Assembly (NCBI GenBank): GCA_964608115.1
Contig: CAZSOI010000040.1
Coordinates: 3,818 to 67,817 of the forward strand
Direction of reading: 5' to 3'
From: an uncultured Burkholderiaceae bacterium
GTDB lineage: Bacteria; Pseudomonadota; Gammaproteobacteria; Burkholderiales; Burkholderiaceae_F
DNA: 64,000 nucleotides
Part shown: positions 7,644 to 44,079 of the stretch, one piece after another
Layout: each line of letters starts with the position of its first letter
How positions within the stretch are numbered: position 1 is the first letter of the stretch
Position numbers and translations under genes: made by a program
The notes under the pieces: generated by a model
The model's database searches: none
What the model saw: only the letters and a program-made list of their open reading frames with translations
What the model was told of the DNA's origin: nothing

Positions 7644-8028
7644 GCGGCGAAGAAAAGACAGCACAGCGGCAAGCGGAGATCGGCTGCTGGTCGATGGAGC
7701 CTACAGGGTGGGGCTTCCCTACAGGCCTTTTGCGCGGCCAGCAAGCGATGATTGTCGTGCTGCCGAGGAGGGCGGGGAAGCAAATTGACGCGCCAGCGTA
7801 AAGCCCTTGACCTACGGCTGGGCGCGAGGTCAATCATTCTGGCCAACGCGCAGATGTCCGAGGGGTGCTAGGCGCTATTGCGTGCGCTTACGCAGGCATC
7901 TGCCACTTGCTACAAAACGCCCACGAGACTTCCCCGAGATAAGCGCGAAGCGGGGGCCCACAAAATCGTGCCTCGCGCCTCGCAGCCCCCGTAGTGCCCG
8001 CGCAACAGCTGCGGAAAGAGGCAAAGCG

Positions 8029-28995: not shown

Positions 28996-29003
28996 ATAGC
29001 AAT

Positions 29004-29033
29004 GCGGGCGGCAATTGCCGCCCGCTTTTTTTT
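29004..29033 (+). terminator. Intrinsic-terminator-like hairpin between the SBP gene and livF
   Basis: GCGGGCGGCAATTGCCGCCCGC (perfect 22-bp palindrome) followed by T8, 8 bp after the SBP stop and directly abutting the next ATG. Confidence 0.7.
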
Positions 29034-29912: not shown

Positions 29913-29939
29913 TTCGCCTTTTCTGGAAACAGCGCTTTC

Positions 29940-31175
29940 ATGTCGGACCATTACGATGCGCTCGAGACTCGCGAACCCGCGGCGCGCGAGCGCGATCTGG
30001 CATTACGCCTGCCACTGCTGATTGCTTCGGCGTTGCGTGCGCCAGGTTGGAGCAGACACCTGGGTTCCATAGATCCGATGGGTGTCGATTCGCGCGCTGC
30101 GCTGGCGCGCTTGCCGCTGTTGCGCAAATCCGCGCTGATCGACATGCAGGCGCAGTCGCCGCCGCTCGCGCAACTCGTACCCGATTCCTTGGCCGATTTT
30201 GGGCGGGTTTTCGTCTCGCCCGGCCCAATTCTCGAAGTCGAAGGGCGCCACGAGGATTGCTGGCGCTCGGCGCGCGGCTTGTATGCGGCCGGAGTTCGCG
30301 CCGGCGACCTTGTGCTTAACACGTTTTCCTATCATCTGACGCCCGGCGGATTCATTCTGGATGCTGGCGCGCGCGCGCTGGGCTGCACGGTCATCCCGGC
30401 GGGTCCTGGCAACACCGAGCAGCAGGTCAAGCTGCTCGCGCAACTTAAGCCCAATACCTACTGCGGCACGCCCGACTTCCTGAAAGTCTTGCTCGACGCC
30501 GCCGATCGCGCCGGCGTTGCGAATTCCCTGCGCAAAGCAGCCGTCTCTGGAGCTGCACTTCCCACATCGCTGCAACGGGAGTTCGCATCGCGCGGTGTCG
30601 ACGCCTATCAGATGTACGCGACGGCCGACCTGGGACTGGTGGCCTACGAAACGCCAGCGCGCGAAGCGCTCGTGGTTGCCGAAGACGTGCTTTTGGAGAT
30701 CGTGCGTCCGGGCACGGGTGATCCGGTCGCCGATGGCGAGGTCGGGGAAGTAGTGGTCACGTCCTTTGACTACAACCGACCCTGGATCCGGCTGGCCCTA
30801 GGCGATCTATCGGCGGTCGCCCCGGGCATTTCGCCCTGTGGGCGCACGAATCAGCGTATACGCGGCTGGCTGGGTCGGGCGGACCAAACGACAAAAATCA
30901 AAGGCATGTTCGTTCGCCCCGAGCAAATCGCCGAACTCTTGCGGCAGCATCCGGAAGTCGAGCGTGCGCGCCTTATCGTCACGCGCGCGGACGAAGTCGA
31001 TGTTGCGACTTTGCGCATCGAGGCTGCGGTGTCGCCGGGCCTGCAAACGCGGCTCGCCGATGCTTTTCGCTCGATTACCAAGATTGGCGGAGAAGTCGAG
31101 TTCGTTGGCCGCGGTACGTTGCCAAACGACGGCAAAGTGATCGAGGATGCACGTCCCGTGCAATCCGCAAATTAG
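29940..31175 (+). CDS. Phenylacetate-CoA ligase-like (PaaK family) adenylating enzyme
   Basis: SPGPI, NTFSYHLTPGG, YCGTPDFL, YATADLG, GRADQTTKIKGMFV. Confidence 0.85.
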   Translation: MSDHYDALETREPAARERDLALRLPLLIASALRAPGWSRHLGSIDPMGVDSRAALARLPLLRKSALIDMQAQSPPLAQLVPDSLADFGRVFVSPGPILEVEGRHEDCWRSARGLYAAGVRAGDLVLNTFSYHLTPGGFILDAGARALGCTVIPAGPGNTEQQVKLLAQLKPNTYCGTPDFLKVLLDAADRAGVANSLRKAAVSGAALPTSLQREFASRGVDAYQMYATADLGLVAYETPAREALVVAEDVLLEIVRPGTGDPVADGEVGEVVVTSFDYNRPWIRLALGDLSAVAPGISPCGRTNQRIRGWLGRADQTTKIKGMFVRPEQIAELLRQHPEVERARLIVTRADEVDVATLRIEAAVSPGLQTRLADAFRSITKIGGEVEFVGRGTLPNDGKVIEDARPVQSAN

Positions 31176-31996
31176 CCTGTCAGGGACGCTTTTTCCCCCG
31201 CGTTAAAGTGCATCGGCGCACGCGCCTCGCTTTGGCTGCTTCGCCCAGATGGTGGCCGCCCCAGTCCCAGCGCCTCCTTTAGCGCCCAGATTCTGCTTCT
31301 GCCGACCGGCACGCGCGGCGAATTGTGACCGTCCATCACGACAATGTAGTTCTCACCCTCGCGCTCGATGGTCTTGGCGTGTCGAAGATTGATAAAGTAA
31401 CTGCGGTGCGTGCGCAAAAAAAAGTTTTGATCCAGTCGCCCCTCAAGGTCACCGAGCGATAAATTGCAGAAATACTGCTGATCGCGTGTGTGTACCGTCG
31501 TGTAGTGCGCCTCCGATTGCATCCATACGACCTCATCGAGCGAGAGCAGCAGCACGCGGTTGTGCAGGAGCACGGGCAGCTTTACAAGCTGTCGGGGACG
31601 GCTCGACCGCTCCGGCAGGTCGCCAAAATTTTCCGCTTGCGTCGTGATGTCGGTTAGGTCGTAAAACACCAGGCACGAACCCACCAGCGCGCCGTGCCCC
31701 ATCAGCTTGGTGACCTTGATCAGCAACACCCGGTCGGGTATCGAGATCATCATCGTCATCGGCGGCGGCGAATCCATCGGACAGCGCGCGGCCTTCTCGG
31801 CCGAGTCCAGCAGGAGCTGGATTTTGTCGCGGCTTTTTTCCGGGTGAAACTGCAGTACTTCACGCCCGATCGGATCGCCTTGAATGTCGCCAAGGACACG
31901 ATGGGCGACTGCATTCATCCCGGCGATGCGATTGTCCGCATCTAGCATGACGACGCCGGGATCGAACTTTTGCAGCTTGTAGTAAAAGCTCTCCAT
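31172..31996 (-). CDS. rcoM: Heme-PAS + LytTR CO-sensing transcription factor
   Basis: PAS with HPEKSRDK (heme His), CPMDSPPPMTMMISIPDR (Cys/Met ligands) and a C-terminal LytTR (FLRTHRSYFINL, VPVGRSR); divergent from coxM, as for RcoM of Paraburkholderia xenovorans. Confidence 0.88.
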   Translation of the reverse strand: MESFYYKLQKFDPGVVMLDADNRIAGMNAVAHRVLGDIQGDPIGREVLQFHPEKSRDKIQLLLDSAEKAARCPMDSPPPMTMMISIPDRVLLIKVTKLMGHGALVGSCLVFYDLTDITTQAENFGDLPERSSRPRQLVKLPVLLHNRVLLLSLDEVVWMQSEAHYTTVHTRDQQYFCNLSLGDLEGRLDQNFFLRTHRSYFINLRHAKTIEREGENYIVVMDGHNSPRVPVGRSRIWALKEALGLGRPPSGRSSQSEARAPMHFNAGEKASLTG

Positions 31997-32090
31997 TGGC
32001 TCTCTACTCTATGCCTTTTGCGCCCTCGGGTGTGCCCTCTTTGCGCGCGCGCGTGCAACCATAGCCAAGACGCGCGCTGCAGCTCAGAAC

Positions 32091-32190
32091 TTGTTAAGCC
32101 ACTAGGGTTGTTTTCGCGTCTGCTCCGCTTTTCGTGCAGCAGGCCTGCAGTTCGTGCGCCAAGCGCCTACTTCCGTGAAATTGTGCACGA
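32091..32190 (+). promoter_or_regulatory. Periodic direct repeats upstream of coxM, candidate RcoM operator
   Basis: TTGTTA 32091, TTTTCG 32111, TTCGTG 32131, TTCGTG 32151, TTCCGTG 32171, at exact 20-bp spacing; an inverted TCGTGCA at 32184-32190. Confidence 0.55.
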
Positions 32191-32305
32191 CAGCAAGCTA
32201 GCGGCAAAAGATACTTTGATTGATTTATCTGTCCTATGTAGCAATGCGCCTGTCGCACGCCTGTGCGGTTCGATTCTCTTGCCGTAGCCGACCATAGGAG
32301 GAAGT

Positions 32306-33169
32306 GTGATTCCACGACCCTTTGAATACCACGCGCCGGCCAATTTGCCCGACGCGCTTTCCTTGCTGCAACGCTACGGCGAGCAAGCAAAGTTACTGGC
32401 GGGTGGGCACAGCCTGCTGCCAATGATGAAACTGCGCTTTGCCGCTCCGGGCCACTTGATCGATTTGGGCAAGATCGGAGAGCTCAGGGGAATCCGGCAG
32501 GTAGGCTCGGAAATCCACATTGGTGCCATGACGACCGAAAATGAGTTGATCTGGTCGCCTCTTTTAGCCGAGAAAATTCCCCTGCTCGCGGAAGGCGCGG
32601 GGCTCATATCGGATCCGCAAGTTCGCTACAAAGGCACCATGGGTGGCGACATCGCGCATGGCGACCCAGCTAACGACCACCCGGCGCTGATGCTCGCGTT
32701 GGATGCGAGCTTCGCGCTGCGCAGTCCGATGGGCGAGCGCATCGTCCCGGCGGATGGCTTTTTTGTTGGACCGTTCGCCACGCAGATGGAGCCGGGGGAA
32801 GTGCTCACGCGCATTCAGATTCCGGTTCCCAGTGCAGGCACCGGCTGGTGCTACGCAAAATTAAAGCGCAAGACCGGGGACTATGCCGCCGCGGCAGCTG
32901 CCGCACTGCTTCGCGTCCAAGCCGGGCGCGTCGCGTTTGCTCGTTTGGCCCTTACCAATGTCGGCCCGATCCCCCTGAAGGTGCGCGCGGCTGAGCAATA
33001 TCTGCAGGGCCGAGCGCTGGATGATGCGGCAATCAACGAAGCCGCGCGGCTTGCAATGAGTATTTGCGAACCGACTCAGGACCAGCGCGGGGACGTCGCC
33101 TACAAGACGGCGATGGCCGGGGAGATGACCCAGCGGGCGCTGCGCACGGCGCACTCGCGCAGCCAATAA
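32306..33169 (+). CDS. coxM: Aerobic CO dehydrogenase medium (FAD) subunit
   Basis: AGGAGG RBS; [47 protein letters not shown]. Confidence 0.96.
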
Positions 33170-33201
33170 GCAAAAACGGTCAACACCGTCAGGAGCCCAA
33201 C

Positions 33202-33687
33202 ATGGCAATCTCACAGAACGTATCGTTCACGCTCAACGGCAAAGCCGTGCAAGTAATGGTCGAACCGCGCGAGCTGCTCATCCACACGCTGCGCGAAAAA
33301 CTGCATCACACCGGTCCACACATCGGCTGCGAAACTTCGCACTGCGGGGCCTGCACGGTCGACATCGATGCCATGTCCGTAAAGTCCTGCACCGTGCTCA
33401 CCGTGCAGTGCCAGGGCGCCGACGTTCTGACTATTGAAGGCTTGGAGCGAAACGGCCAACTCCACGCGCTGCAGGAAGCCTTTAGCCAGGACCACGCCCT
33501 GCAGTGTGGCTACTGTACGCCAGGCATGATCACGCGGGCATATCGGCTGCTGCAGGAGAATCCCAACCCCTCGGAGCAGGAGATCCGCTACTGGATGGCG
33601 GGCAACCTGTGCCGATGCACGGGTTATCAAAACATCGTCAAGGCGGTGCAGTCCGCGGCGCAAAAGCTCGCGGCGCAGCCCGCCTAG
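33202..33687 (+). CDS. coxS: Aerobic CO dehydrogenase small (2x[2Fe-2S]) subunit
   Basis: [28 protein letters not shown]; AGGAG RBS before ATG 33202. Confidence 0.96.
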
Positions 33688-33757
33688 GCCACGTTGCGCC
33701 AATTTCATAGCGCGCATTGCCAGCCAGATCAACGTCTCTAACCCGGGAGATTGCCAC

Positions 33758-36166
33758 ATGCCTGATACCAACGTCGTTGCGCGCGAGCGCCAAGACAAGC
33801 TGCAGGGAATGGGGTGCTCGCGCAAGCGCAAGGAGGACGCTCGTTTCATTCGCGGCCAAGGAAGCTTCGTTGACGATATTCAGCTGCCCGGAATGCTCTT
33901 TGGAGCCATGGTGCGCAGCCCCTACGCGCACGCGCGCATCAAATCGATCAACAAGGCCAAGGCGCTCGCGGTGCCGGGTGTTGTTGCCGTGCTGACCGCC
34001 GATGATCTAAAGCCGGTGAACCTCGCGTGGATGCCGACGCTCGGAGGCGACGTTCAGGCGGTACTCGCTGACAAAAAGGTCTGCTTCCAGTACCAGGAAG
34101 TCGCGTTTGTCATCGCAAACGACCGCTATGCCGCGGCCGACGGTGTCGAAGCAGTAGAGGTGGAGTACGAGGAGTTGCCCGCAATCGTCGATCCGCGTCG
34201 GGCGATGGATAGAAATGCCCCGATCATCCGGGAGGACATCGCAGATAAGCCCGAAGTGGGCCACGGTCCGCGCACGCACCCCAATCATATCTTCACCTGG
34301 GAGGCGGGCGACAAGGGCGGTACCGACGCGGCCTTTGACAAGGCCCCCGTAATCGTCCGGCAAGAAATTCTGAATCCTCGCGTACACCCTTGCCCGCTGG
34401 AAACCTGCGGCTGTGTCGCCTCATTTAACAAACCCACGGGGCAGTTGACGGTGTACATGACTTCCCAGGCACCGCACCTCGTACGAACCGTCGCGTCCAT
34501 GCTCTCGGGCGTTGCAGAGAGCAAGATCCGTATCGTAGGTGGCGATATTGGCGGGGGCTTTGGCAACAAGGTGCCGGTCTACCCGGGTTATGTCGCCGCC
34601 ATCGTGGCCAGCATCGTGACGGGAGTACCGATCAAGTGGATCGAGTCGCGCATCGAAAACATCTCGACCACGGGATTTGCCCGCGACTACCACTGCGTGG
34701 GTGAGCTCGCGGCCGATAGGGACGGACGGATACGAGCGCTTCGGTTTCGGGCCCTTGCCGACCACGGCGCCTTTAATGCCCACGTTTCGGCGACAAAATT
34801 TCCCGCGGGCCTTTTTAGCATCTGCACAGGCTCCTACGACATCCCCAAGGCGTATTGCCGGGTCGATGCCGTCTACACGAATAAGGCGCCCGGTGGGGTG
34901 GCCTACCGCTGCTCGCTGCGGGTCACGGAGGCGGTGTACCTCATCGAGCGAATGATCGACGTGCTGGCGCAGAAAGTCGGAGTGGATAAGGCCGAAATTC
35001 GTCGGCGCAACTTCGTCAGGGCCGAACAGTTCCCGTATACCACCGCCTTTGGCTGGACGCTCGACAGCGGCAATTATCAGCGCGCACTCGAGAAGGTTCT
35101 GACGGCAGTGGACTACGATGGTCTACGCCGTGAACAAGCGCAAAAGCGCGCCCGCGGGGAACTGATGGGCATCGGCATATCGACGTTTACGGAAATCGTC
35201 GGCGCCGGACCAACCAAGGCCTGCGACATTCTTGGCATAGGCCTTTTTGACAGCTGCGAGATCCGTGTGCACCCCACGGGCAGCGTCATCGCTCGATTAG
35301 GCACGATGAGCCAGGGTCAGGGTCATGCAACGACGTACGCACAGATCATTGCCACCGAGCTTGGCCTGCCCTCGGAGGACATTCAAATCGAGGAGGGCGA
35401 TACGGACAAGGCACCGTACGGCGCCGGCACCTGGGGCTCGCGCTCCACGCCGGTTGCCGGTGCCGCGGCAGCGCGCGCCACCCGCAAGATCATGGACAAA
35501 GCCAAGAAGATTGCCGCCCACCTATTGGAGGTCGGCGTAGGCGATCTGGAGTGGGAGGTTGACCGCTTCAAGGTCAAGGGCAATCCCAGCGCGACAAAGA
35601 CCATGAAGGAAATATGCATGGCCGCGCACGGTAGCAATCTGCCAGCGGGCATGGAGCAGGGCCTGAACGCCGTAGAGTATTACGACCCGCCCAACCTGAC
35701 CTTTCCTTTTGGCGCTTACGTTTGTGTCGTCGATATCGACCGCTTCACGGGGGAGACCAAGGTACGGCGCTTTTACGCACTGGACGACTGCGGCACGCGC
35801 ATCAACCCGATGATCATCGAAGGTCAGATCCACGGCGGGCTGACGGAAGCCTTCGCGGTAGCAATGGGTCAGTCGGTTCCCTTTGACGAAAGTGGCAATC
35901 ACCTGGGCAACAGCTTCATGGATTATTTCGTGCCCACCGCGATGGAAACACCGAAATGGGAAACGGATTCCACGGTAACTCCGTCGCCGCACCACCCGAT
36001 CGGTGCCAAAGGCGTGGCCGAATCGCCCCATGTGGGTGGCATACCGTGTTTTTCAAACGCTGTCATCGATGCCTTTGCGCATCTGGGGGTCACACACATG
36101 GACATGCCGCATACCTCGTATCGCGTATGGCAGCAATGCAACAGCTCGGGTGTCAACAAGCGCTGA
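33758..36166 (+). CDS. coxL: Aerobic Mo-Cu CO dehydrogenase large subunit, form I-like (AYRCSLR)
   Basis: GGGFGNK, active-site AYRCSLR at 34901-34921 with the Cu-ligating Cys, QGQGHATT, KGVAESP; order coxM-S-L is typical of form I loci. Confidence 0.95.
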   Translation: MPDTNVVARERQDKLQGMGCSRKRKEDARFIRGQGSFVDDIQLPGMLFGAMVRSPYAHARIKSINKAKALAVPGVVAVLTADDLKPVNLAWMPTLGGDVQAVLADKKVCFQYQEVAFVIANDRYAAADGVEAVEVEYEELPAIVDPRRAMDRNAPIIREDIADKPEVGHGPRTHPNHIFTWEAGDKGGTDAAFDKAPVIVRQEILNPRVHPCPLETCGCVASFNKPTGQLTVYMTSQAPHLVRTVASMLSGVAESKIRIVGGDIGGGFGNKVPVYPGYVAAIVASIVTGVPIKWIESRIENISTTGFARDYHCVGELAADRDGRIRALRFRALADHGAFNAHVSATKFPAGLFSICTGSYDIPKAYCRVDAVYTNKAPGGVAYRCSLRVTEAVYLIERMIDVLAQKVGVDKAEIRRRNFVRAEQFPYTTAFGWTLDSGNYQRALEKVLTAVDYDGLRREQAQKRARGELMGIGISTFTEIVGAGPTKACDILGIGLFDSCEIRVHPTGSVIARLGTMSQGQGHATTYAQIIATELGLPSEDIQIEEGDTDKAPYGAGTWGSRSTPVAGAAAARATRKIMDKAKKIAAHLLEVGVGDLEWEVDRFKVKGNPSATKTMKEICMAAHGSNLPAGMEQGLNAVEYYDPPNLTFPFGAYVCVVDIDRFTGETKVRRFYALDDCGTRINPMIIEGQIHGGLTEAFAVAMGQSVPFDESGNHLGNSFMDYFVPTAMETPKWETDSTVTPSPHHPIGAKGVAESPHVGGIPCFSNAVIDAFAHLGVTHMDMPHTSYRVWQQCNSSGVNKR

Positions 36167-36190
36167 GTACCCCGACGCGGGAGCGGCGAC

Positions 36191-36814
36191 ATGAAGGTGC
36201 AACTGGAACGATCTTTTCCAATGCCGGCGGGCAGCGATGTCGTCTGGCGCATGTTGCAGGACGTTGAGGCCGTCGCCGGATGCATGCCTGGAGCGAAGAT
36301 CTCCGAGCGCATCGATGCGCGGCACTTTAAGGGGACCGTGAGCGTACGGGCAGGGCCCGCCACATTGCTGTTCCGGGGTGATATCGAGGTATTGGAGGTG
36401 GACCCGGCGGCCCGAAGCCTGCGCCTGATGGGCAAGGGCACCGACAGCACTGGGACTTCGGGCGCCTCCATGGACTTGACGGCAAGCGTGCAAGGCGATG
36501 GTGCCAGTAGCAATCTTGTGGGCAAAAGCGAGGTCGCCATGAGCGGCAAAGCGGCGGCATTTGGCGGTCGCGTGATGAACTCCGTCGCCGATCAGATTCT
36601 GAAGCAGTTCGCGAGCAACTTCGCCGTGCAAGTGACGGCCCTTGCGGGCGCGGGCGCATCAACACAGGCAGTGGGTGCGGGCAAAGCTGCTGGCGCTGTG
36701 GCCGCGCCCATGGCGTCCAAAGCTTCGACAGGCGGCCACATTAATGCGTTGGCACTGCTTTGGGCGGTCATCAAGGACTGGTTGCGCGGGCTCTTTGGCA
36801 AGAGAGCGGCATGA
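36191..36814 (+). CDS. coxG: CoxG (SRPBCC fold with C-terminal membrane anchor)
   Basis: VAGCMPGA, GKAAAFGGRVM, Ala-rich linker, C-terminal INALALLWAVIKDWLRGLF. Confidence 0.9.
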   Translation: MKVQLERSFPMPAGSDVVWRMLQDVEAVAGCMPGAKISERIDARHFKGTVSVRAGPATLLFRGDIEVLEVDPAARSLRLMGKGTDSTGTSGASMDLTASVQGDGASSNLVGKSEVAMSGKAAAFGGRVMNSVADQILKQFASNFAVQVTALAGAGASTQAVGAGKAAGAVAAPMASKASTGGHINALALLWAVIKDWLRGLFGKRAA

Positions 36815-36902
36815 GTGCGACGAAGTGGCCGCCGCTCAAAGCGGCGCATCCGTTTGGCAACAAGCGCAGGGCCTGACGTGGGCCCTGAGGTAAGTCCCGC
36901 TC

Positions 36903-37790
36903 ATGCGTCCATTTGCCGACACCGAGGATCTGATCGGCAGACTTGAGCACGCCGGCTACATCGCCGAGCGCGGCTTGGCCGTGGCGCTCTTGTTAATGGC
37001 GCAGCTCCGGCGCCCCTTGCTGGTCGAAGGCGATGCGGGTGTGGGCAAGACCGAGATCGCAAAGGCGTTGGCGACCGCGTATGGCTGCGAGCTCATACGG
37101 CTGCAGTGTTACGAAGGCCTAGACGTCAACGCGGCGGTGTATGAGTGGAACTACCAGCGGCAACTGCTGGCTATCAAGATGCGCGAGGCCGAGGAGAGCT
37201 CGCTCGCCGAAAAAGAGCGCCACGTTTTTAGCGACGAGTACCTGTTGCAGCGCCCCTTGCTTCAGGCGATCCGTCGGCCCCAGCCCCCGGTGTTGCTCAT
37301 CGACGAAATCGATCGCGCCGATGAGCAGTTTGAGGCCTACCTACTGGAAGTACTTTCCGACTATCAGGTGAGCATCCCGGAACTTGGCACCGTCCGTGCG
37401 GTCAGTATTCCGCACGTCGTGTTGACCTCCAACGGCACCCGGGAGCTAAGCGATGCCCTGCGTCGGCGTTGTCTGTACCACTACCTGGACTACCCGAGCT
37501 TCGAGAAGGAACTGCGCATTGTCCTGCGGCGCGTACCGCAAATCGAAGAGCAACTTGCCGGTCAGATCGTGACCTTCGTGCAAAAGCTGCGCACCGAAGA
37601 GCTGCAAAAGCGCCCCGGTACGGCCGAGACGCTCGACTGGGCTGCAGCGCTCGTGCAGCTGCGCGTTAGCTCCCTTGATTCGAATCCGGATTTCATCGCC
37701 GACACGCTCGCGTGTTTGCTAAAGACCCGCGAAGACCTGGCCGCTGTGCCGCCGAGCGTCTCCGCACGGCTGTTGGCGCAATCGATATGA
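36903..37790 (+). CDS. coxD: MoxR-type AAA+ ATPase CoxD
   Basis: LLVEGDAGVGKTE, LQCYEGLD, LLIDEIDRAD, DALRRRC. Confidence 0.93.
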   Translation: MRPFADTEDLIGRLEHAGYIAERGLAVALLLMAQLRRPLLVEGDAGVGKTEIAKALATAYGCELIRLQCYEGLDVNAAVYEWNYQRQLLAIKMREAEESSLAEKERHVFSDEYLLQRPLLQAIRRPQPPVLLIDEIDRADEQFEAYLLEVLSDYQVSIPELGTVRAVSIPHVVLTSNGTRELSDALRRRCLYHYLDYPSFEKELRIVLRRVPQIEEQLAGQIVTFVQKLRTEELQKRPGTAETLDWAAALVQLRVSSLDSNPDFIADTLACLLKTREDLAAVPPSVSARLLAQSI

Positions 37791-38974
37791 AGCGGGGGCA
37801 CGCAATGACCACGACCCCAGAGGCTTCAGAGGCGCGAACTGCGCTCGCGAGGCGGCTGCCCGAGCGAATCGTGGAGTTCGTGCGCCTGATGCGAGCCAAC
37901 CATTATCGGGTTGGCATCCAAGAGGCCATCGATGCGCTGCAGGTTGCGCAATGCATCGATATCCTTGACGCGCGCCAGCTGCGCTGCGCGCTACGGTCCC
38001 TGTTGTGCTCCAATCCAGCAGACTGGAAGGGCTTTGATGCGCTTTTTGAGCGCTACTGGCAACACCAGAGCGCGGGCGCAATCGAGCTCACGGTCGGCGG
38101 TCGCATCGAGCGGCTCGAACCTGGAGCAATGCTTGGCCTGCAGATCAAGCCGGTGAGCGCGACCAACAGCCGGCGCGAGGACGCTTGGCGTGAGGCGCTG
38201 CGCGTGGGTGCGAGTCCTCACGAGGCCATGACGCGCAGCGACTTTCGGCTTGCGCAGCTGCACGAGAACACCTGGCCGCTCGAGCAATGGATCGAGGCTC
38301 TGGCGCGGCGCATGCGCAAGCGGTTGCTGCGGCGACACCATGTCAGCAACCTTGGGCACCGAATCCACGTGCGCCGCACCATCCGACGCAGCCTCACCTA
38401 CGGCGGATTGCCGCTGGATCTGATCTACCGAGAACGGCGCCGCGAATTACCGCGCCTGGTTCTTATCATCGATGTAAGTCGATCGATGAACGCATATAGC
38501 TACTTTTTTCTGCGGTTTGCGCGCGGCATTGTCGATGCCTTTCAAAATACCGATGCGTTTGCCTTTCACACGCGCCTGGTTCACATCGTCGATACCCTGC
38601 GAGAGCCCGATCGCCATCGTTTGAAGGAAAAACTCGCCTGGATTGCAGCCGGCTGGGGGGGCGGCACGCGCATCGGCGAGAGTCTGCAGGCATTTAATCG
38701 CGAATACGCGCGCCGCCTCGTGGATTCGCATACCTTCGTTTTTATCCTCAGCGACGGCTACGACACGGGTGCACCCGAGCTGCTGGGCGAGCAGTTGCGC
38801 CGGCTGCAGCAAAGAGCCAAGCGCATCGTGTGGCTCAACCCGCTTATGGGTCGCACCGACTACGCCCCGATTGCAAGCGGCATGCAGGCTGCATTGCCGT
38901 ATCTCGATCTGCTGGCGCCAGCGCACAACCTGGAGAGCCTGATGAAGATCGAGCAGATGCTGCTTCGCCTGTAG
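37787..38974 (+). CDS. coxE: VWA-domain protein CoxE
   Basis: IDVSRSM (MIDAS-like), AFHTRL, WGGGTRIG, ILSDGYDTG, WLNPL; ATGA overlap with coxD. Confidence 0.92.
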   Translation: MKRGHAMTTTPEASEARTALARRLPERIVEFVRLMRANHYRVGIQEAIDALQVAQCIDILDARQLRCALRSLLCSNPADWKGFDALFERYWQHQSAGAIELTVGGRIERLEPGAMLGLQIKPVSATNSRREDAWREALRVGASPHEAMTRSDFRLAQLHENTWPLEQWIEALARRMRKRLLRRHHVSNLGHRIHVRRTIRRSLTYGGLPLDLIYRERRRELPRLVLIIDVSRSMNAYSYFFLRFARGIVDAFQNTDAFAFHTRLVHIVDTLREPDRHRLKEKLAWIAAGWGGGTRIGESLQAFNREYARRLVDSHTFVFILSDGYDTGAPELLGEQLRRLQQRAKRIVWLNPLMGRTDYAPIASGMQAALPYLDLLAPAHNLESLMKIEQMLLRL

Positions 38975-38986
38975 GAAAAAGCCGCC

Positions 38987-39216
38987 ATGGGATCGCTTGC
39001 ACCGGCCCAGCATCGGATGGCGCGCGTCATTATCCGGATCCCGTCTGCGGCATGCCGGTCGATGCGACCAAAGTGTGCTTCGCGTTCGATTTCGAGGAGT
39101 CGCGGCTTTTCTTTTGCTGCGAGGGTCGCCGCTTGGCGTTCGCGCGCGAGCCTGCGTGTTTCGCCGCTGACCGCGCGGCCTTGCCGCATGCGAGTGCATC
39201 GGGGATGCTGATGTGA
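38987..39216 (+). pseudogene. YHS-domain small protein with an apparent 1-nt frameshift
   Basis: DPVCGMPVD...FFCCEG...F..EP is in the frame ending at TGA 39216, which overlaps the next GTG but has no nearby start. The RBS-preceded ATG at 38987 is one base out of frame; adding one G near 39036 gives MARVIIRDPVCGM. Could be a sequencing error. Confidence 0.7.
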
Positions 39217-39860
39217 GCAGCGCTACGACTTGCTTTTCGGCCATCGTGCTGGCAGCCGGCACCTCCGCGCGCATGCGCGGTGCGCACAAACTGTTGTTGC
39301 CCATTGACGATGAGCCGCTCATCCGCCGCACCGTTCGTGCGGTGCTCGCCGCCAAGCCGCAAGAGCTGGTCGTCGTGACCGGTTTTCAGGAAGTTGCGAT
39401 ACGCGCTGCTCTCACCGATCTGCCGATCCGAGTGCAGTTCAACCCCTCGTTCGAACAGGGCCAGATGAGCTCCGTGACGGCCGGCGTGCGCGCGCTGACC
39501 TTGCCCGCCGATGCAGTCATGGTGTGTCTGGGAGACATGGTCCTGCTAACAGGCGAAGATTATCGGGAGTTGGTCGAGGTTTTTGCGCGGCGCGCCGAAC
39601 GCTCCATCGTTGTGCCGCGTTTTGAAGGACAGCGCGGCAATCCCGTGCTCATCGATGGCAGGTACTTACCGCAACTGCTTGCAGAACAACGCAATCTGGG
39701 CTGTCGCAAGCTCGTCGCGGATTATCCGCAAGAGGTGCTTGCGTACGATGCGCCACACGACCGCTTCGTGGTCGACGTTGACACCCCCGAAGACTATGCG
39801 CGAGTTGTGCGCCGAGTCGCATCCCTGCGGCCTCGGACGGCGCAAGGTGGTGCCACATGA
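39213..39860 (+). CDS. mocA: Molybdenum cofactor cytidylyltransferase-like NTP transferase (MocA family)
   Basis: AIVLAAGTSARM...KLLL, GQMSSV..G, LGDMVL, GQRGNPVL, DVDTPEDY; MCD cofactor context of CODH. Confidence 0.82.
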   Translation: MSSATTCFSAIVLAAGTSARMRGAHKLLLPIDDEPLIRRTVRAVLAAKPQELVVVTGFQEVAIRAALTDLPIRVQFNPSFEQGQMSSVTAGVRALTLPADAVMVCLGDMVLLTGEDYRELVEVFARRAERSIVVPRFEGQRGNPVLIDGRYLPQLLAEQRNLGCRKLVADYPQEVLAYDAPHDRFVVDVDTPEDYARVVRRVASLRPRTAQGGAT

Positions 39861-40531
39861 TGCGCACGGGCGCTGCGGCATGGAGCCGCACTGCCTCTGG
39901 CCTGCTCGCCGCCGCGAGCCTGCTAGGTCTGATGGGATGGGCCTGGCGGCTGTCGGCGATAAGCGTTCAGCACGATACGGTGTGGATCGAACTCACGATC
40001 TTCGCCACGATCGGTGGCGTTGTGGCACTAGGTTGGCTGCGATCGCCGCGCGTGGCGATAACGGCGCCACAAATCATGTTGCTGCTGGGCGCTGTCGGGA
40101 TGGTAGCCGGTCTTGCCTACGACGAGCGCTCGGGAGGTTTCACCGCGCTCGTTTCTCTGTGCCAAGCCGGAAGGGGAGACTTTTTTGGCACGATGCGACT
40201 GCACTGGCAGCTGCTGCCCGCAATGCATCTTGGAATGATCGCAGGTGGACTGGCGACGGTTCCGCTCTTGCGCACCTTGCGTCGTGGCTGCCGGCGACAG
40301 TTTTGCGCGCGCCTGGTACAAAACCTCGCGTGCTCGGCTTGGATGATCGTTGGCATGAGCGCCGGAGTGCTCGGCTTCTCAGAGCTGGCGAACTGGGCCG
40401 GGGGACGCAGCCCAACTGCCATGTTAGGTGGCATGTTTGCGGGCATGGTGTGGGGTATGGTCGCTAGCGTCGCTCTGTATCGGCTGTGGTTTGTATTCGT
40501 TGCGCCCCGGCTGGGCCAGGAAAACGCGTAG
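39857..40531 (+). CDS. Hypothetical Met/Cys/His-rich integral membrane protein
   Basis: About 6 hydrophobic segments with GMVAG, SLC, MHLGMIAGG, CRRQFC, CSAWMIVGM, MLGGMFAGMVWGM; ATGA-coupled to mocA. Confidence 0.75.
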   Translation: MMRTGAAAWSRTASGLLAAASLLGLMGWAWRLSAISVQHDTVWIELTIFATIGGVVALGWLRSPRVAITAPQIMLLLGAVGMVAGLAYDERSGGFTALVSLCQAGRGDFFGTMRLHWQLLPAMHLGMIAGGLATVPLLRTLRRGCRRQFCARLVQNLACSAWMIVGMSAGVLGFSELANWAGGRSPTAMLGGMFAGMVWGMVASVALYRLWFVFVAPRLGQENA

Positions 40532-40934
40532 GCGACAGCAGCAACGATGTCGGCTGTTTTTGCACGCATTAGAAGCCTGCAATTTGTCTTACGTTTCCCG
40601 GCAGCACATTGCAATTGCAAGGCAAGGGCGGGCCCAAGACGCGGATGGGGGCGCCGGCCAACCAAGTTGCGGCGCCCGCGCTCTTTTTATGAGCAGCCGA
40701 CAACCATTTGCTGAGCCCATCTTGGCGTTTGCGAGCCTTCTGGCCGCAGCGGTATGAACGCAGCTGGGCAGTGCCCGCTCCGCAGTTGGGCGCACGCATT
40801 GCATCACCCCTACAATTGCGGCCTGCGAGGCGCCGATTGCGGATGGCGGATTTCGCGTTTAAGGGTGCGTACTGCCCAAGCCAGTACGCCGAGCTGGCAA
40901 GGCCCCAGGCGAATCTTGATACGAGGAGAGCGCG

Positions 40935-41975
40935 TTGAGCAGCACCCGAGTTCAATCGCCGTCCTGGCTCTTGGCAGACGTGGGCGGCACGAACGTGCGC
41001 TTTGCCCTGGCGCAGCCCGCCGCCGTTGTGCCGCTATTAAGCGAGAGCATCCGCGCGTATCGGGTTGCGGATTTCCTCTCCTTGGCCGATGCCGCCCGAT
41101 CCTATCTACGAACTCTTGCGAGCCGGCCAGAGCATGCGGTGTTCGCGCTCGCTGGCCGAGTGGAAAACGGTCACGTGAAGATGACCAATCATCCTTGGTC
41201 GGTATCGGCCGCGCAGCTGCAAAGCGACTTGGCACTGCAATCGGTTCAGCTCATTAATGATTTTGCTGCCATCAGCATGGGGTTACCGCTTTTGCAGCGC
41301 GACGATGTAATGGCGCTCGGCCACGGTGCCGATGTGATCTGCCGTCGAGCAAGAGCGCAGACTTTTTGTGTCTTGGGCCCGGGTACCGGTCTGGGAATTT
41401 CGGCATTGACGGTCCGCGACGGACGCATCGAAACACTGCAAACCGAGGGTGGGCATGTCGGGTTTGCACCGACTTCGTCGGAGGAAATTGCCATATTGCG
41501 CCAACTCATGGACCGCTTCGGCCGCGTATCCATCGAACGGGTGCTTTGCGGTAGCGGACTTGTCAATGTCTACCAGGCCATCTGCGCGACCGACACGATC
41601 GAGGCTTCGCCGCTAGCGCCGGAGGAAATCACCGAACGTGCCCGACAGCTGACCGATCCGCCGTGTGTGCGAGCTGTTGAGATGTTCTGCGATATTTTGG
41701 GCTCAGTGGCGGGTGACTGTGTATTGAGCTACGGCGCCTGGGACGGTGTCTACTTGGCCGGCGGCATGCTTGCGCCCTTATCGCCGTGGCTACAGCAAGG
41801 CAGGTTCCGACTGCGTTTTGACAATAAGGGTCGTTTCGCACAGGCCGTAGGCCGGGTACCCGTGGCCCTTATCACCCATTCGCAGCCCGGGCTGCTGGGA
41901 GCGGCCGCATACGCGGTGCTCGCATCCGGAAGATCCCCGTTGCGAAACGTCGATCCCATGCCCAATAAAACATGA
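40935..41975 (+). CDS. glk: Glucokinase
   Basis: LADVGGTNVRF, INDFAA, GPGTGLG, TEGGH, GVYLAGG. Confidence 0.95.
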   Translation: MSSTRVQSPSWLLADVGGTNVRFALAQPAAVVPLLSESIRAYRVADFLSLADAARSYLRTLASRPEHAVFALAGRVENGHVKMTNHPWSVSAAQLQSDLALQSVQLINDFAAISMGLPLLQRDDVMALGHGADVICRRARAQTFCVLGPGTGLGISALTVRDGRIETLQTEGGHVGFAPTSSEEIAILRQLMDRFGRVSIERVLCGSGLVNVYQAICATDTIEASPLAPEEITERARQLTDPPCVRAVEMFCDILGSVAGDCVLSYGAWDGVYLAGGMLAPLSPWLQQGRFRLRFDNKGRFAQAVGRVPVALITHSQPGLLGAAAYAVLASGRSPLRNVDPMPNKT

Positions 41976-42091
41976 GGCAATGACAGGGCTGCTGCGCCAC
42001 CTGTTCGTGTTAGCCCCGATGTGGGATCCGCCGGCTCGCTCGAGGTAGTTCAATACGGCACCTTTTATTTCTTTTGCAATCGAACTTTGTG

Positions 42092-42670
42092 ATGACGGAC
42101 ACGAATAATTCTTCGAGCGCAGTGGAAGTCGCGACGCCGGTGCGCAGGGTCCATCCCATGGTGGCAACGGCGGCAGTGGCTGTTACCGCGGTGTGTGCAA
42201 TTGCCGCGGTCCAGTTTCTTTCACCGCAAAATGCGCGCTCGGCGGCGCAACCCGGAGCCGCGGTGCCGGCCTCACCAAGTGCAACTTCGTCGGCGCCCGC
42301 GCTACCCACGGGTGCCGCATCGCCAACCGCTTCGGTTTGTCCCGACTGCGGCGAGATCGTCAATATCCGCGCCTCGCGTCAGGAGGGCAGCGGCACCGGC
42401 TTGGGGGCCGTTGCCGGGGGTCTGCTGGGCGCCGTGGTGGGACATCAGTTAGGTGCCGGACACGGCAAACAGGCCATGACGGTGGTAGGGGCCGTCGGTG
42501 GCGCCGTGGCCGGCAATGAGGTGGAAAAACAATCCAAGGCGCAAACGCTATACCTTGTCGATGTGCGCATGGCCGACGGCTCGGCGCGAACCGTCACGCA
42601 GAGCTCGGCGCCAAGTCTTGCCATTGGCACAAAGGTGCGGGTGAGCGGCAACACCATCGTGGCGCGATAG
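42092..42670 (+). CDS. Glycine-zipper 2TM outer-envelope protein
   Basis: CPDCGEI, GTGLGAVAGGLLGAVVGHQLGAGHG, GAVGGAVAGNEVEK, VRMADGS; start at 42092 or 42074. Confidence 0.85.
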   Translation: MTDTNNSSSAVEVATPVRRVHPMVATAAVAVTAVCAIAAVQFLSPQNARSAAQPGAAVPASPSATSSAPALPTGAASPTASVCPDCGEIVNIRASRQEGSGTGLGAVAGGLLGAVVGHQLGAGHGKQAMTVVGAVGGAVAGNEVEKQSKAQTLYLVDVRMADGSARTVTQSSAPSLAIGTKVRVSGNTIVAR

Positions 42671-43251
42671 CGCACACCGTAGCATTCAACGATATTGGCG
42701 GCCGGAGCCCCACGCGCGCTCCTGGTGCCTGGTCCTCATGTCAGAGGCTAGTGCACGCATGGTCTTAATGGCTTTGTCCAGCCTTCCCTATTGGACTCCG
42801 TTACCGCGCGCAAGGCCGTGCACCAGGCATTTCGTGTCTTTTCCGATGCAGTTGCGTTGTGCTCGATGCAAGCGCAATTTACGCGAGGCCACAGCTGCGT
42901 CCCAAGCGGTGTAGGCTGGTGAATGGAGCCGCATTTTTTGCCTGGTCGCCCGCTGGCCTAAGCGCAGCACGTAGCGCCCCGGCCGCTAAGGATCGGCGCT
43001 ATCGATCTTGCCGTGGCAGTCGACCGCGGCTTGCGCCAATTAAGGCAATTGCCCGGTACAAGAGACCAATCACGGCGCACCTGCGGGGTCTTGCCGCCGG
43101 ATGGCGCTCCAAAACTCGCCCCGGCGAGCGCCTCGCGCGCTTGCATGGTGGCGAGGTTGTACGCAGCATGTGTTTCCTGCGCTAGATTTGAGGCAACGCG
43201 CCAATCCGACGCAGCGCCGGCGCCTTGTCCAGACCCAGCGGAGGCAAGAAC

Positions 43252-44061
43252 ATGGAGGAGCAATCGCGCAGCATCCTTTGGAAGTCGATCGGCGCGACCG
43301 CCGTCGTCCTTATCGTCCTTGCGGCTGCAGGCTACTACTGGTATCAGCGCAACTCCGGAACCGGGACGGTCGCGCCACCCGAGGCGCCCGCGCCCGCCGC
43401 CTTGGCACCGGCTCCCGCTCCCAAGGCCGAGTCCGAGTACCTATATCCCATCGATGAGGCCGACTCCGATCACACGACAGCGCTGGATCAAAGCGACGCC
43501 AAGCTACTCGATGCGATCGGCCATTTGCAGGGCTGGCCTGCGAGCGCCTTGCGGCTACTGGTGCCAAAGGACCTGGTGCGCCACATCGTGGCGACGGTCG
43601 ATGGTCTGACGCGCGAGAAGCTCTCGCTTCAGGTGCTTCCTACCCGGCCGGTGAACGGACTGATGCAGATAACCGGTTCGGCCAAGAGCGCCACGATTGC
43701 CGCAACTAACGCACAGCGCTATGCGCCCTATATTCAGGCGTTAACCGCGGTGGATACGGCGCAGCTCGGTGCGCTGTATCGGCACTTTTATCCGCTTTTT
43801 CAGCAGGCCTATCGCGAGCTTGGCTACCCTAAGGGATACTTCAATGATCGTCTTGTCGAGGTAATCGACGATATGCTGGAGGCGCCCGAACCTAAACCCC
43901 CGATCCCCGTCGTTGCGCCGCGCGCGATGTTTCACTACGTCGACCCGGATTTGGAAGCGCTCGACTGCGGGCAAAAAATCCTCGTGCGTGTCGGCGCCGC
44001 CAACGAGAGCGCTATCAAGACCAAATTGCGCGAGATTCGCGCGGCCGTCACGGCGCGCTAA
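43252..44061 (+). CDS. DUF3014-like membrane-anchored protein
   Basis: N-terminal TM, Pro/Ala linker, N..RYAPY, LYRHFYPLFQQAYRELGYP..YFNDRL, DPDLEAL..GQKILVR.G..N. Confidence 0.8.
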   Translation: MEEQSRSILWKSIGATAVVLIVLAAAGYYWYQRNSGTGTVAPPEAPAPAALAPAPAPKAESEYLYPIDEADSDHTTALDQSDAKLLDAIGHLQGWPASALRLLVPKDLVRHIVATVDGLTREKLSLQVLPTRPVNGLMQITGSAKSATIAATNAQRYAPYIQALTAVDTAQLGALYRHFYPLFQQAYRELGYPKGYFNDRLVEVIDDMLEAPEPKPPIPVVAPRAMFHYVDPDLEALDCGQKILVRVGAANESAIKTKLREIRAAVTAR

Positions 44062-44079
44062 GACCGCGCGCCATCCGTG

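Follow-up and report, generated by a model that had tools for sequence, protein, structure and literature searches.

A form-I CO dehydrogenase operon carrying a coxF relic encodes a putative copper-supply membrane protein of an undescribed family

Results

The window, that is, the whole stretch of 64,000 nucleotides of DNA from an uncultured Burkholderiaceae bacterium that was analyzed, contains a form-I aerobic (Mo-Cu) CO dehydrogenase (CODH) operon. Its genes follow the order coxM-S-L-G-D-E, a coxF relic, mocA, and a gene for a 224-aa membrane protein, hereafter called X, with rcoM transcribed divergently:

31172..31996, - strand: RcoM-like CO-responsive regulator (PAS plus LytTR), divergent from coxM (Pfam LytTR 78.5 bits, PAS 26.4 bits)
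32306..33169, + strand: coxM, FAD subunit (Pfam FAD_binding_5 169.5 bits, CO_deh_flav_C 80.7 bits)
33202..33687, + strand: coxS, 2x[2Fe-2S] subunit (Pfam Fer2_2 115.6 bits, plus Fer2; AGGAG precedes the ATG at 33202)
33758..36166, + strand: coxL, form-I Mo-Cu CODH large subunit (TIGR02416 1383.6 bits; loop AYRCSLR)
36191..36814, + strand: coxG, SRPBCC protein (Pfam COXG 69.7 bits)
36903..37790, + strand: coxD, MoxR-type AAA+ ATPase (Pfam AAA_5 and AAA; 91% identity to the protein of the related locus L012, dN/dS 0.08)
37787..38974, + strand: coxE, VWA protein (Pfam VWA_CoxE 197.6 bits; start overlaps the coxD stop, ATGA)
38987..39216, + strand: coxF relic (colinearity with L012 apart from an 818-bp gap; YHS tail out of frame)
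39213..39860, + strand: mocA-like Moco cytidylyltransferase (Pfam NTP_transf_3, PF12804, 122.7 bits, passes)
39857..40531, + strand: X, 224-aa membrane protein (unassigned in Pfam and NCBIfam; 4-nt ATGA overlap between the mocA stop and the X start)

The coxM-S-L order is accompanied by the maturation genes coxD and coxE, and the CoxL score lies above the curated equivalog cut-off of TIGR02416 (991.15 bits). At residue 382, the active-site loop of CoxL reads AYRCSLR instead of the canonical AYXCSFR, with the Cu-binding Cys kept and Phe replaced by Leu. Since the CSLR variant is common to the window's CoxL clade wherever the motif is readable, including in Ramlibacter isolates, the substitution points to a lineage trait and not a lesion. 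The mocA-like protein matches the MobA-like NTP transferase model PF12804 but scored 141.6 bits against TIGR03310, below the cut-off of 186.45; its cox-adjacent position is conserved. Compared with L012, the closest relative, the other cox genes, mocA, and X are all intact and show dN/dS values of 0.04 to 0.16 (0.04 for coxL and 0.12 for X). A sequence-only reading of this DNA had listed coxG, coxD, coxE, a MocA-like gene, and a gene for a membrane protein, mostly coupled by overlapping stop and start codons. We confirmed these genes, which all lie downstream of coxMSL on the + strand, the last encoding a hydrophobic protein of 224 aa, and found ATGA overlaps at coxD/coxE and at mocA/X.

We then compared the operon with known cox clusters. 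The coxBCMSLDEFGHIK cluster of plasmid pHCG3 from Oligotropha (Afipia) carboxidovorans shares with the window the form-I coxMSL genes, coxD (AAA+), coxE (VWA), and coxG, whereas the window lacks an intact coxF and MHYT genes and adds rcoM, mocA, and X. CoxF of pHCG3 is an XdhC-type factor needed for Cu insertion, with a length of 280 aa and no YHS tail. The pHCG3 membrane proteins CoxB, CoxC, CoxH, and CoxK are transporter-like, MHYT, and DMT proteins, none of which is homologous to X, and no X homologue was detected when the X-family HMM (--max) was run against the six-frame translation of the 20-kb cox region (best E = 0.43, noise). Burkholderiales-type cox clusters match the window in order and content, including rcoM, mocA, and an unnamed gene. 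Those of Cupriavidus ulmosensis CV2 and Paraburkholderia terrae COX are described as rcoM-coxMSLGDEF-mocA-"hypothetical," rcoM being given as a partner gene for Cupriavidus and Paraburkholderia cox clusters alike (PMC11771112); that paper does no more than mark a hypothetical gene by an asterisk in its Fig. 2, and its place after mocA in the two strains is presumed. Neither that paper nor the other literature searched contains an analysis of this gene. On pBN2 of Paraburkholderia aromaticivorans, mocA is followed by a gene for a 228-aa X homologue and then by a second XdhC gene (coxI). In contrast to the CV2, COX, and pBN2 clusters, in which coxF-YHS is intact, the window retains no more of coxF than the relic, and its cluster does not include coxI.

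The relic was recognized by alignment with L012, which encodes an intact 343-aa CoxF (L012 positions 6021 to 7052) composed of XdhC and a C-terminal YHS domain. The two loci are colinear except for L012 positions 6036 to 6853 (∼818 bp), which are absent from the window. The remaining segment consists of the retained start and first codons (38987 to ∼39001), a deletion junction (39002 to 39017), and a YHS tail (39018 to 39216) homologous to the CoxF YHS tails of the L012, pBN2, Caballeronia, Thermomicrobium, and Deinococcus cox clusters. The tail is in the frame of position 38830, out of frame with the old coxF ATG, while the ORF that begins at this ATG (38987 to 39211) runs in the other frame and encodes an Arg-rich nonsense peptide. 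The XdhC_CoxI domain (PF02625) and the XdhC Rossmann domain (PF13478) were both missing from positions 28000 to 46000 of the window in searches by tblastn and with an XdhC HMM, in line with the earlier claim that the cluster contains no XdhC/CoxF gene. The tail itself scored 19.5 bits against Pfam YHS (PF04945; cut-off, 30.3; E = 0.00096), shows 56% amino acid identity to L012 with a dN/dS of 0.44, compared with 0.04 to 0.16 for its neighbors, and has FCCEGR where 24 of 24 other CoxF tails have FCCxGC, a change of the third TRASH/YHS Cys to Arg that is unique among the 25. Together, these comparisons show that the window's lineage encodes a CoxF in which XdhC is joined to a C-terminal, Cys-rich, metal-binding YHS domain, that ∼0.82 kb of the body of the window's coxF was deleted along the terminal branch, and that the remainder is a start codon and a decaying, out-of-frame YHS tail under relaxed selection.

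We considered whether the deletion could be an artefact of assembly, as the source genome is a fragmented short-read metagenome-assembled genome (MAG) of 550 contigs. This seems extremely improbable, since a JGI metagenome contig from an independent assembly (L097, 5.6 kb) has the exact same junction and aligns to the window without gaps and with 7 mismatches (99.875% identity), and an assembly collapse would not produce a tail that has diverged far beyond its neighbors. The sequence-only reading had proposed a coxF-less module with a small free YHS protein as the Cu(I) shuttle between the membrane protein and CoxL. A YHS-like reading does exist at 39018 to 39216, its frame is open back to a GTG at 38830 inside coxE, and both possible stops abut the mocA start, so that translational coupling to mocA is kept. 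However, the segment corresponds to the 3' end of a deleted XdhC-YHS fusion, no ATG, GTG, or TTG downstream of the coxE stop precedes the first ligand Cys (that of DPVCGM), and the sole upstream start for this frame lies 145 nt inside coxE and lacks an obvious ribosome-binding site. The loss of the third Cys, the subthreshold Pfam score, and the elevated dN/dS also speak against a functional protein. Furthermore, a free YHS gene was found in no other X-only cluster, and the one other free YHS ORF (64 aa, in L048) belongs to a decayed remnant locus in a genome without CoxL. We thus consider the shuttle model very improbable and abandon both the free-standing YHS gene and its transport role.

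A search of the genome for coxF/xdhC, as that reading had suggested, gave a mixed answer: no CoxF-type gene was found in the 550-contig MAG, which is 94% complete, such that one could be unassembled, but CoxI-type XdhC fragments exist at the end of contig C68 and the start of contig C523. The XdhC genes that X-only genomes carry elsewhere belong to the CoxI type or to a third, distant group of XdhC; not one is nearest to CoxF, and not one has a YHS tail.

Searches with X retrieved 379 homologues (word-indexed search) and 210 representative clusters in 1.8 billion proteins (exhaustive search), none of them named. X matched no family in Pfam or NCBIfam; against the PDB, a profile search gave nothing below E = 0.98, and the best Foldseek match had an E of 0.47 and a TM score of about 0.2 to 0.3. 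Sequence or fold similarity to known copper transporters (Ctr, CopD, CcoA/MFS, P1B-ATPase, CopB/PcoB) was not detectable. These results mark X as a member of an undescribed membrane-protein family. The AF2 model shows six long helices (pLDDT 84), and the distribution of charge in the loops agrees with six helices and both termini inside (N-in/C-in); across the family, six helices are predicted for the long form and four for the core.

Met represents 6.2% of X, compared with ∼1.9% for the genome. Among 104 family representatives, C102 (in SLC) is conserved in 99%, H116 in 96%, M163 in 93%, C159 in 83%, and H124 (in MH) in 77%, while M82, M127, M167, M193, and M197 are kept in 93 to 99%; D89 and P121 are also conserved. 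The resulting core signature, with four transmembrane (TM) helices, reads GM(82), D89, C102, H116, P121, GM(127), C159-x3-M163-x3-M167, M193-x3-M197; all of its residues are present in P0001 and conserved in 83 to 99% of the 104 representatives. The family retains a Met ladder, GMxxGMxxGM, on Gly-rich helices, together with one Asp, two His, and two Cys whose predicted positions step from the outer face of the membrane to the inner face. All the motifs previously pointed out in the membrane protein exist, and SLC, MH, and CxxxM are conserved, but the CxxxxC pair (C145/C150) is confined to the window's X subfamily, in a strongly basic loop predicted to be cytoplasmic. This loop is not family-wide and does not track with the absence of coxF. 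In one family member, P0162, the N-terminal half of CoxE is fused to the X core.

X homologues stand beside form-I cox genes in 61 of 68 genomic loci, in at least five gene orders, and distant members of 160 to 183 aa are also located within cox clusters. The CoxL adjoining X has an AYRCS[F/L]R motif in every readable case. In a sample of 301 genomes, X was present in 6 of 13 form-I-positive genomes and in none of the 288 form-I-negative genomes (P = 2e-9 by Fisher test, without correction for kinship), and it is absent from the form-II-like cluster of the source genome. L048 was the only full-flank X locus without cox genes; its mocA and X are truncated and the genome has no CoxL. One distant X-like gene lies just downstream of a gene for a tyrosinase-domain protein, another copper enzyme, and two weak outlying members (P0297 and P0298) are in loci unrelated to cox. 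Within the clusters, X is usually coupled to maturation genes (mocA, coxD, or coxF), often to coxD, and not to structural genes. Some clusters of the X-D-E-M-S-L type contain an extra MFS gene between coxD and coxE. X is thus found essentially only next to form-I cox genes, which supports the sequence-only reading on the test that it had proposed, whether homologues are restricted to loci for CODH or other cuproenzymes.

The distribution of X was then related to that of coxF. In an unbiased sample of the order, X alone occurred in 4 clusters, both genes in 2, coxF alone in 9, and neither in 0 (P = 0.011), this sample being small (15 informative clusters) and its relatives not independent. When this sample was extended by loci chosen for their X gene and by outgroups from plasmids, 36 of 47 clusters with X had no XdhC within 10 kb, while an adjacent XdhC was present in all 16 informative clusters without X (P = 4e-8). 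No informative cluster lacked both genes, a point on which the X-selected loci cannot inform. In the CoxL tree, X and coxF states are interleaved, with at least 11 changes, and in the clade with the D-E-M-S-L order the slot before coxD holds either X or coxF-YHS. X-only clusters occur in cultured Ramlibacter, both genes in P. aromaticivorans BN5 and P. eburnea, and coxF alone in the sequenced strain Caballeronia sp. SBC2; our literature search found no cultured strain with X and without coxF that is documented as a CO oxidizer. This complementarity is as expected if X and CoxF both act at the copper step. X is, however, not strictly a replacement, because it co-occurs with coxF-YHS in 13 rows of the tree, including the window's sister L012. 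The earlier definition of the module by the absence of coxF did not hold, as X homologues also reside in clusters with coxF-YHS and coxI (for example, Paraburkholderia pBN2, L012, and L098).

Discussion

Much of the biological removal of atmospheric CO is due to aerobic CODH. To our knowledge, it is among the very few cytoplasmic copper enzymes of bacteria, and the only model that we know of for how Cu reaches the buried Mo-S-Cu site is that of CoxD/E/F in one organism, which is largely speculative. In O. carboxidovorans, coxF is essential for CO utilization and Cu insertion, and coxF and coxE mutants contain CODH without Cu that can be reconstituted with Cu(I) (PMC4240915). We infer a role of X in Cu(I) supply. 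On balance, we lean toward the view that, in this form-I operon with its coxF relic, X belongs to a family acting at the copper step of CODH maturation and making CoxF dispensable. This would explain the repeated loss of coxF, and the window would represent one such loss caught just after the event. X would use its Met/His/Cys relay to import Cu(I) or to keep it at the membrane and would pass it to the cytoplasmic machinery, either to the YHS domain of CoxF, if present, or directly to CoxE/CoxD-CoxL. Moco sulfuration and insertion would still be served by a CoxI-type XdhC encoded elsewhere. Our more specific proposal, that X is a hitherto unrecognized protein for Cu(I) entry or hand-off that serves the cytoplasmic Mo-Cu CODH alone and is able to replace the CoxF-YHS copper chaperone, is a serious possibility that we regard as more tentative; if true, this functional replacement would explain the many losses of coxF in X-bearing operons.

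X could instead be a cox accessory with a role unrelated to copper, either a docking platform for the CoxD/CoxE complex or for CODH or a thiol, redox, or sulfur relay for the Mo-S-Cu bridge, an alternative that we regard as rather unlikely, together with its corollary that the complementarity reflects a scaffold role shared by X and CoxF and not metal supply. Docking would suit CoxD and CoxE, which are membrane-bound in O. carboxidovorans though they have no TM helices (PMC4240915), and would fit the frequent coupling of X to coxD and the P0162 fusion; a conserved Cys could carry a persulfide. Yet a platform would not need a Met ladder with His, Cys, and Asp spread across the bilayer, and CoxG already supplies a link to the membrane and to quinone (PMC12202499). 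X does not vary with coxG either, as clusters of the D-E-M-S-L type lack coxG whether they contain X or coxF. The restriction of X to the Cu-containing form I, with none in the form-II-like cluster of the same genome, further disfavors a role without copper. Alternatively, the loss of coxF may have inactivated CODH, and X would be a passenger of a cluster heading to pseudogenization. The essentiality of coxF in O. carboxidovorans (PMC4240915) and the decayed remnants in L048 and G364 are consistent with such a fate, but the other cox genes, mocA, and X are intact and show low dN/dS. In addition, the 36 X clusters without adjacent XdhC, including those of cultured Ramlibacter, have full-length M, S, L, (G), D, and E, and the presence of the deletion in two assemblies differing at 7 sites argues for a population in which it persists. 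We therefore judge this outcome to be improbable.

The mode of action that we propose for X, a copper-step protein at the membrane, may resemble that of known small metal transporters. Ctr1 and MerT/MerC are small uptake proteins for thiophilic metals. A TM helix of Ctr1 combines MxxxM with a GxxxG packing motif, and MerT/MerC use TM Cys and a cytoplasmic Cys pair to hand Hg to MerA. X is likewise a small helical membrane protein; its Gly-rich helices place Met or Cys at i, i+4 spacing, and its Cys pair is predicted to be cytoplasmic. As with MerT/MerC, the operon of X also encodes a cytoplasmic enzyme that needs the metal. X showed no detectable similarity to these proteins in sequence or fold, and the analogy concerns a possible working mode and not family membership. 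CcoA-type MFS and CopD-type importers have the same job as that proposed for X, namely, supplying Cu to the cytoplasm or membrane on behalf of a single cuproenzyme, but they are unrelated in fold and family, and no MFS or CopD model matched X.

Our analysis corrects the annotation of this locus, where the YHS reading is a gene relic, and shows that "coxF-less" operons are common among Burkholderiales. Incomplete copper loading limits the activity of heterologously produced Mo-Cu CODH, and X may be relevant to the production of active enzyme. The X family provides a concrete, genetically testable candidate for copper delivery to CODH, with cultured strains covering the X-only and both-gene states and a sequenced strain covering the coxF-only state.

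The cox operon and its CoxL

ORF listing and profile searches of the window delineated one plus-strand cox operon behind a divergent minus-strand regulator.

Features of the cox region (window coordinates, strand, feature)
31172-31996, minus, RcoM-like PAS-LytTR regulator, divergent from the operon
32306-33169, plus, coxM
33202-33687, plus, coxS
33758-36166, plus, coxL (form-I model TIGR02416)
36191-36814, plus, coxG
36903-37790, plus, coxD
37787-38974, plus, coxE
238-bp interval between coxE and mocA
39213-39860, plus, MocA-like cytidylyltransferase
39857-40531, plus, 224-aa hydrophobic protein, called X here
40935-41975, glucokinase, farther downstream of X

This is a form-I CODH operon: CoxL scored 1383.6 bits against the TIGR02416 equivalog, passing the cut-off of 991. 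Its active-site loop, AYRCSLR (34901-34921), keeps the Cu-ligand Cys and has Leu in place of Phe. The same loop was present throughout the window's CoxL clade wherever the motif was readable, including in cultured Ramlibacter species, so that, as judged from the sequences, it is a lineage trait and no lesion. Scanning the operon for promoters and terminators gave nothing above shuffled controls, and tblastn found no coxI remnant 3' of X in the window. Between X and the glucokinase gene lies a 167-aa ORF (40754-41257) with no Pfam or NCBIfam match; it overlaps the long open frame of the glucokinase and may be no gene.

A coxF deletion between coxE and mocA

The sequence-only reading had placed a free YHS protein between coxE and mocA and had it shuttle Cu(I) from X to CoxL. 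We found no support for such a protein. Translation of ORF 38987-39211 yields an Arg-rich nonsense peptide, and DPVCGM...FFCCEGRRLAFAREP, the YHS-like stretch, is read in a different frame, open from 38830 to 39216, where no ATG, GTG or TTG separates the coxE stop from the first ligand Cys. The Paraburkholderia aromaticivorans replicon pBN2 has, between coxE and mocA, a gene for a 351-aa XdhC-family CoxF whose final ~55 residues form a YHS domain (39.3 bits with Pfam YHS). The same architecture was found in the window's nearest relative, a Burkholderiaceae MAG with a 94% identical CoxL (L012), which carries a 343-aa coxF at 6021-7052. The window and L012 are colinear to the left of the junction (38000-39001 and 5035-6035, respectively) and to its right (39018-40000 and 6854-7836), and ~818 bp of the L012 coxF body is absent from the window. 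The coxF start, ATG GGA TCG CTT, is kept at 38987, now out of frame with the YHS tail. This tail scored 19.5 bits against a Pfam YHS cut-off of 30.3, the lowest among 25 CoxF tails, and no other of them has FCCEGR in place of FCCxGC. Its identity to the L012 tail is 56%, at a dN/dS of 0.44; the genes flanking it are 80-94% identical to those of L012, with dN/dS values of 0.04-0.16. In an exact-match scan of metagenome contigs, an independently assembled 5.6-kb JGI contig (L097) carried the identical junction (99.875% identity to the window, 7 mismatches, 0 gaps); thus, the deletion is real and present in a population. Together, these alignments establish at the sequence level that the YHS reading is the out-of-frame relic of a dead coxF, which was recently deleted.

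The source MAG of the window (4.0 Mb, 550 contigs, 94% complete) contains XdhC-family fragments at the end of contig C68 (L004:10780-11676) and at the start of contig C523. On C523 (L005:359-6987), the fragment lies divergently to a form-II-like coxS-L-M-D-E cluster, whose 837-aa large subunit reached 656 bits with TIGR02416, short of the cut-off. Both fragments share 58-63% identity with pBN2 CoxI and ~24% with CoxF; by this comparison they are CoxI-type. Neither carries a YHS tail, and no CoxF-type gene was found in this 94%-complete MAG. We rejected the idea that the fragments are halves of one split XdhC gene. Since their overlap is only 95% identical over 63 aa, with no exact match, they are strain variants or paralogues.

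X is a membrane protein family tied to form-I cox clusters

Neither X nor eight distant members matched any model in Pfam or NCBIfam. A word-indexed search with X returned 379 homologues, all annotated "hypothetical" and mainly from Burkholderiales MAGs, and a profile search run exhaustively over 1.84 billion representatives gave just 210 clusters at E <= 1e-3. Neither Foldseek (best E, 0.47) nor a sequence profile search turned up anything useful in the PDB. A relationship to CoxB, CoxC, CoxH or CoxK of Oligotropha carboxidovorans was rejected, as no homology was detected. Clusters of the type rcoM-coxMSLGDEF-mocA are known in Cupriavidus and Paraburkholderia, with "a hypothetical gene" marked in Fig. 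2 of that work (PMC11771112); our literature search found no analysis of that gene.

We recovered 68 X loci, taking one genome per species, and cox genes adjoin X in 61 of them; the idea about the membrane protein thus stands up to the check suggested with it, whether its homologues are restricted to cox or other cuproenzyme loci. Six of the other seven loci meet a contig end on at least one side: coxF or mocA still adjoins X in four (L024, L026, L034 and L051), and X alone is readable in two (L078 and L079). The seventh (L048, 8960-10465) holds a 64-aa free YHS ORF followed by truncated copies of mocA and X; CoxL is absent from its genome, a complete 3.2-Mb Burkholderiaceae chromosome, and the locus looks like a decayed leftover of a former cox operon. 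Among 301 genomes sampled evenly across the order, 6 of the 13 that are form-I-positive carry X, against 0 of the 288 others. All readable CoxL proteins adjoining X contain AYRCSFR or AYRCSLR. The 47 loci that hold coxL, coxD and coxE show at least five gene orders.

Gene orders around X (M, S, L, G, D, E, F and I, coxM to coxI; A, mocA; <>, divergent)
MSLGDE-F(YHS)-A-X, with or without I: 8 loci
MSLGDE-A-X: 8 loci
(A)-X-D-E-M-S-L: 14 loci
X-MSLGDE-(A): 3 loci
AEDGLSM<>X, divergent: 9 loci

A Ramlibacter isolate has coxMSLGDE-mocA-X, and P. aromaticivorans BN5 carries both X and coxF. Some X-D-E-M-S-L clusters have, between coxD and coxE, an added gene for a 440-aa MFS transporter (Sugar_tr/MFS_1), a candidate CcoA-like copper importer (L114:15124-16446, minus strand; likewise L025, L027, L029, L032 and L115). 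Distant members of 160-183 aa likewise lie inside cox clusters. In L081 the order is coxC-MSL-D-E-F-X, with a CoxL that falls beside the O. carboxidovorans one in the CoxL tree; L098 and L101 have rcoM-MSLGDE-F(YHS)-A-X-I. No X was found in the 20-kb cox region of the O. carboxidovorans plasmid pHCG3, and two weakly matching outliers lie in loci that have nothing to do with cox. We conclude that X represents an undescribed family tied to form-I cox.

The AF2 model of X predicts six long helices (pLDDT 84, pTM 0.82), and the loop charges (11 K/R inside, 3 outside) fit an N-in/C-in protein with six helices. Met makes up 6.2% of X versus ~1.9% genome-wide. Among 104 representatives, M82, C102, H116, M127, C159, M163, M167, M193 and M197 are kept in 83-99% and H124 in 77%; D89 and P121 are invariant or almost so in curated alignments. 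Secondary structure and the positive-inside rule would place D89, C102, H116 and M193 on the outer side of the membrane, M127, M163, M167 and M197 within it, and C159 close to the inner face. The CxxxxC pair (C145 and C150), confined to the long Burkholderiales form of X, would be cytoplasmic, in a loop with six Arg. X has a dN/dS of 0.12, indicating purifying selection. It is a conserved, cox-specific membrane protein, and it is usually translationally coupled to maturation genes. One 373-aa representative (P0162) couples the X core to the N-terminal half of CoxE, which precedes the VWA domain (29% identity across 184 residues); this is either a true fusion or another deletion, one that took out the VWA domain together with coxF.

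X and coxF are distributed complementarily

We scanned the CoxL surroundings in all 20 form-I-positive genomes of a 401-genome sample, 15 of which were informative. The others comprised three clusters cut by contig ends, a decayed one and that of G253, which carries X on a contig too short to show the presence or absence of coxF. In one form-I cluster (L124; G364:C1:891000-910999), coxL is 5'-truncated and coxM, coxS and coxE were not detectable beside coxG and coxD; it is probably decaying.

X and coxF in the 15 informative genomes
X only: G000 (source MAG of the window, coxF deleted), G012, G018, G127
Both X and coxF: G056, G383
coxF-YHS only: G262, G276, G181, G088, G236, G256, G388, G352, G369
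Neither: none

X and coxF are thus distributed complementarily (Fisher p = 0.011 over the 15 clusters, kinship ignored). In the D-E-M-S-L clade, the slot before coxD is filled by either X or coxF-YHS. XdhC adjoins all six further X-less clusters (Caballeronia, Bradyrhizobium, Aestuarium, Shinella, Thermomicrobium and Deinococcus), with a YHS tail in three of them, and pHCG3, also X-less, has XdhC adjoining its cox genes. XdhC-YHS genes lie by form-I coxMSL in Thermomicrobium roseum (L129:11246-12421), Deinococcus sp. AJ005 (L130:12574-13692) and Caballeronia (L125:13971-15218), so the fusion is widespread across phyla; a literature search found no paper analysing it. Among the 47 loci, which were selected for X, 36 have no XdhC within 10 kb. 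Five X-only genomes encode XdhC proteins at other sites; these belong to the CoxI type or to a third, distant type, and none is nearest to CoxF or has a YHS tail. Our literature search found no cultured CO-oxidising strain with X and without coxF.

X-only, coxF-only and two-gene clusters are intermixed in three of the four clades of a 61-row CoxL tree. At least 11 state changes are required, and supported branches force at least 7 for the X-only state. L012, the window's sister on this tree, has both genes. As regards the membrane protein, the idea of a coxF-less metallation module is strengthened by the complementarity with coxF and has to be corrected in that X also co-occurs with coxF.

Possible role of X

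We propose that X would work at the copper step of CODH maturation, a role that we regard as plausible and put slightly short of an even chance. A Met ladder on Gly-rich helices, together with bilayer-spanning His, Cys and Asp, would fit a Cu(I) relay, for which Ctr1 or MerT serves as an analogy; homology of X to either was not found. In O. carboxidovorans, the CODH of coxE and coxF mutants lacks Cu and can be reconstituted with Cu(I), and CoxD and CoxE are located at the membrane (PMC4240915).

Two narrower ideas were rejected. The CxxxxC loop does not stand in for the Cys cluster of YHS where coxF is missing, because the loop is not found in X-only clusters of the Oxalobacteraceae type and is present in some clusters with both genes. 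Nor is X a CoxG substitute, since D-E-M-S-L clusters lack coxG under X or coxF alike and most other clusters carry coxG and X together. Another accessory role, for example docking, redox or sulfur transfer, would share the link of X to the maturation genes and its complementarity with coxF; next to the Met, Cys and His pattern we consider it rather unlikely. That the window's operon is inactive might be suspected from the loss of coxF; it seems to us quite improbable, with X under purifying selection.

A distant member of 154 aa (P0242; L099:4100-9465) is encoded 39 nt behind a 1620-aa protein with subtilase, peptidoglycan-binding, OmpA-like and tyrosinase (type-3 copper) domains, which gives the family a second link to a copper enzyme, outside cox loci.
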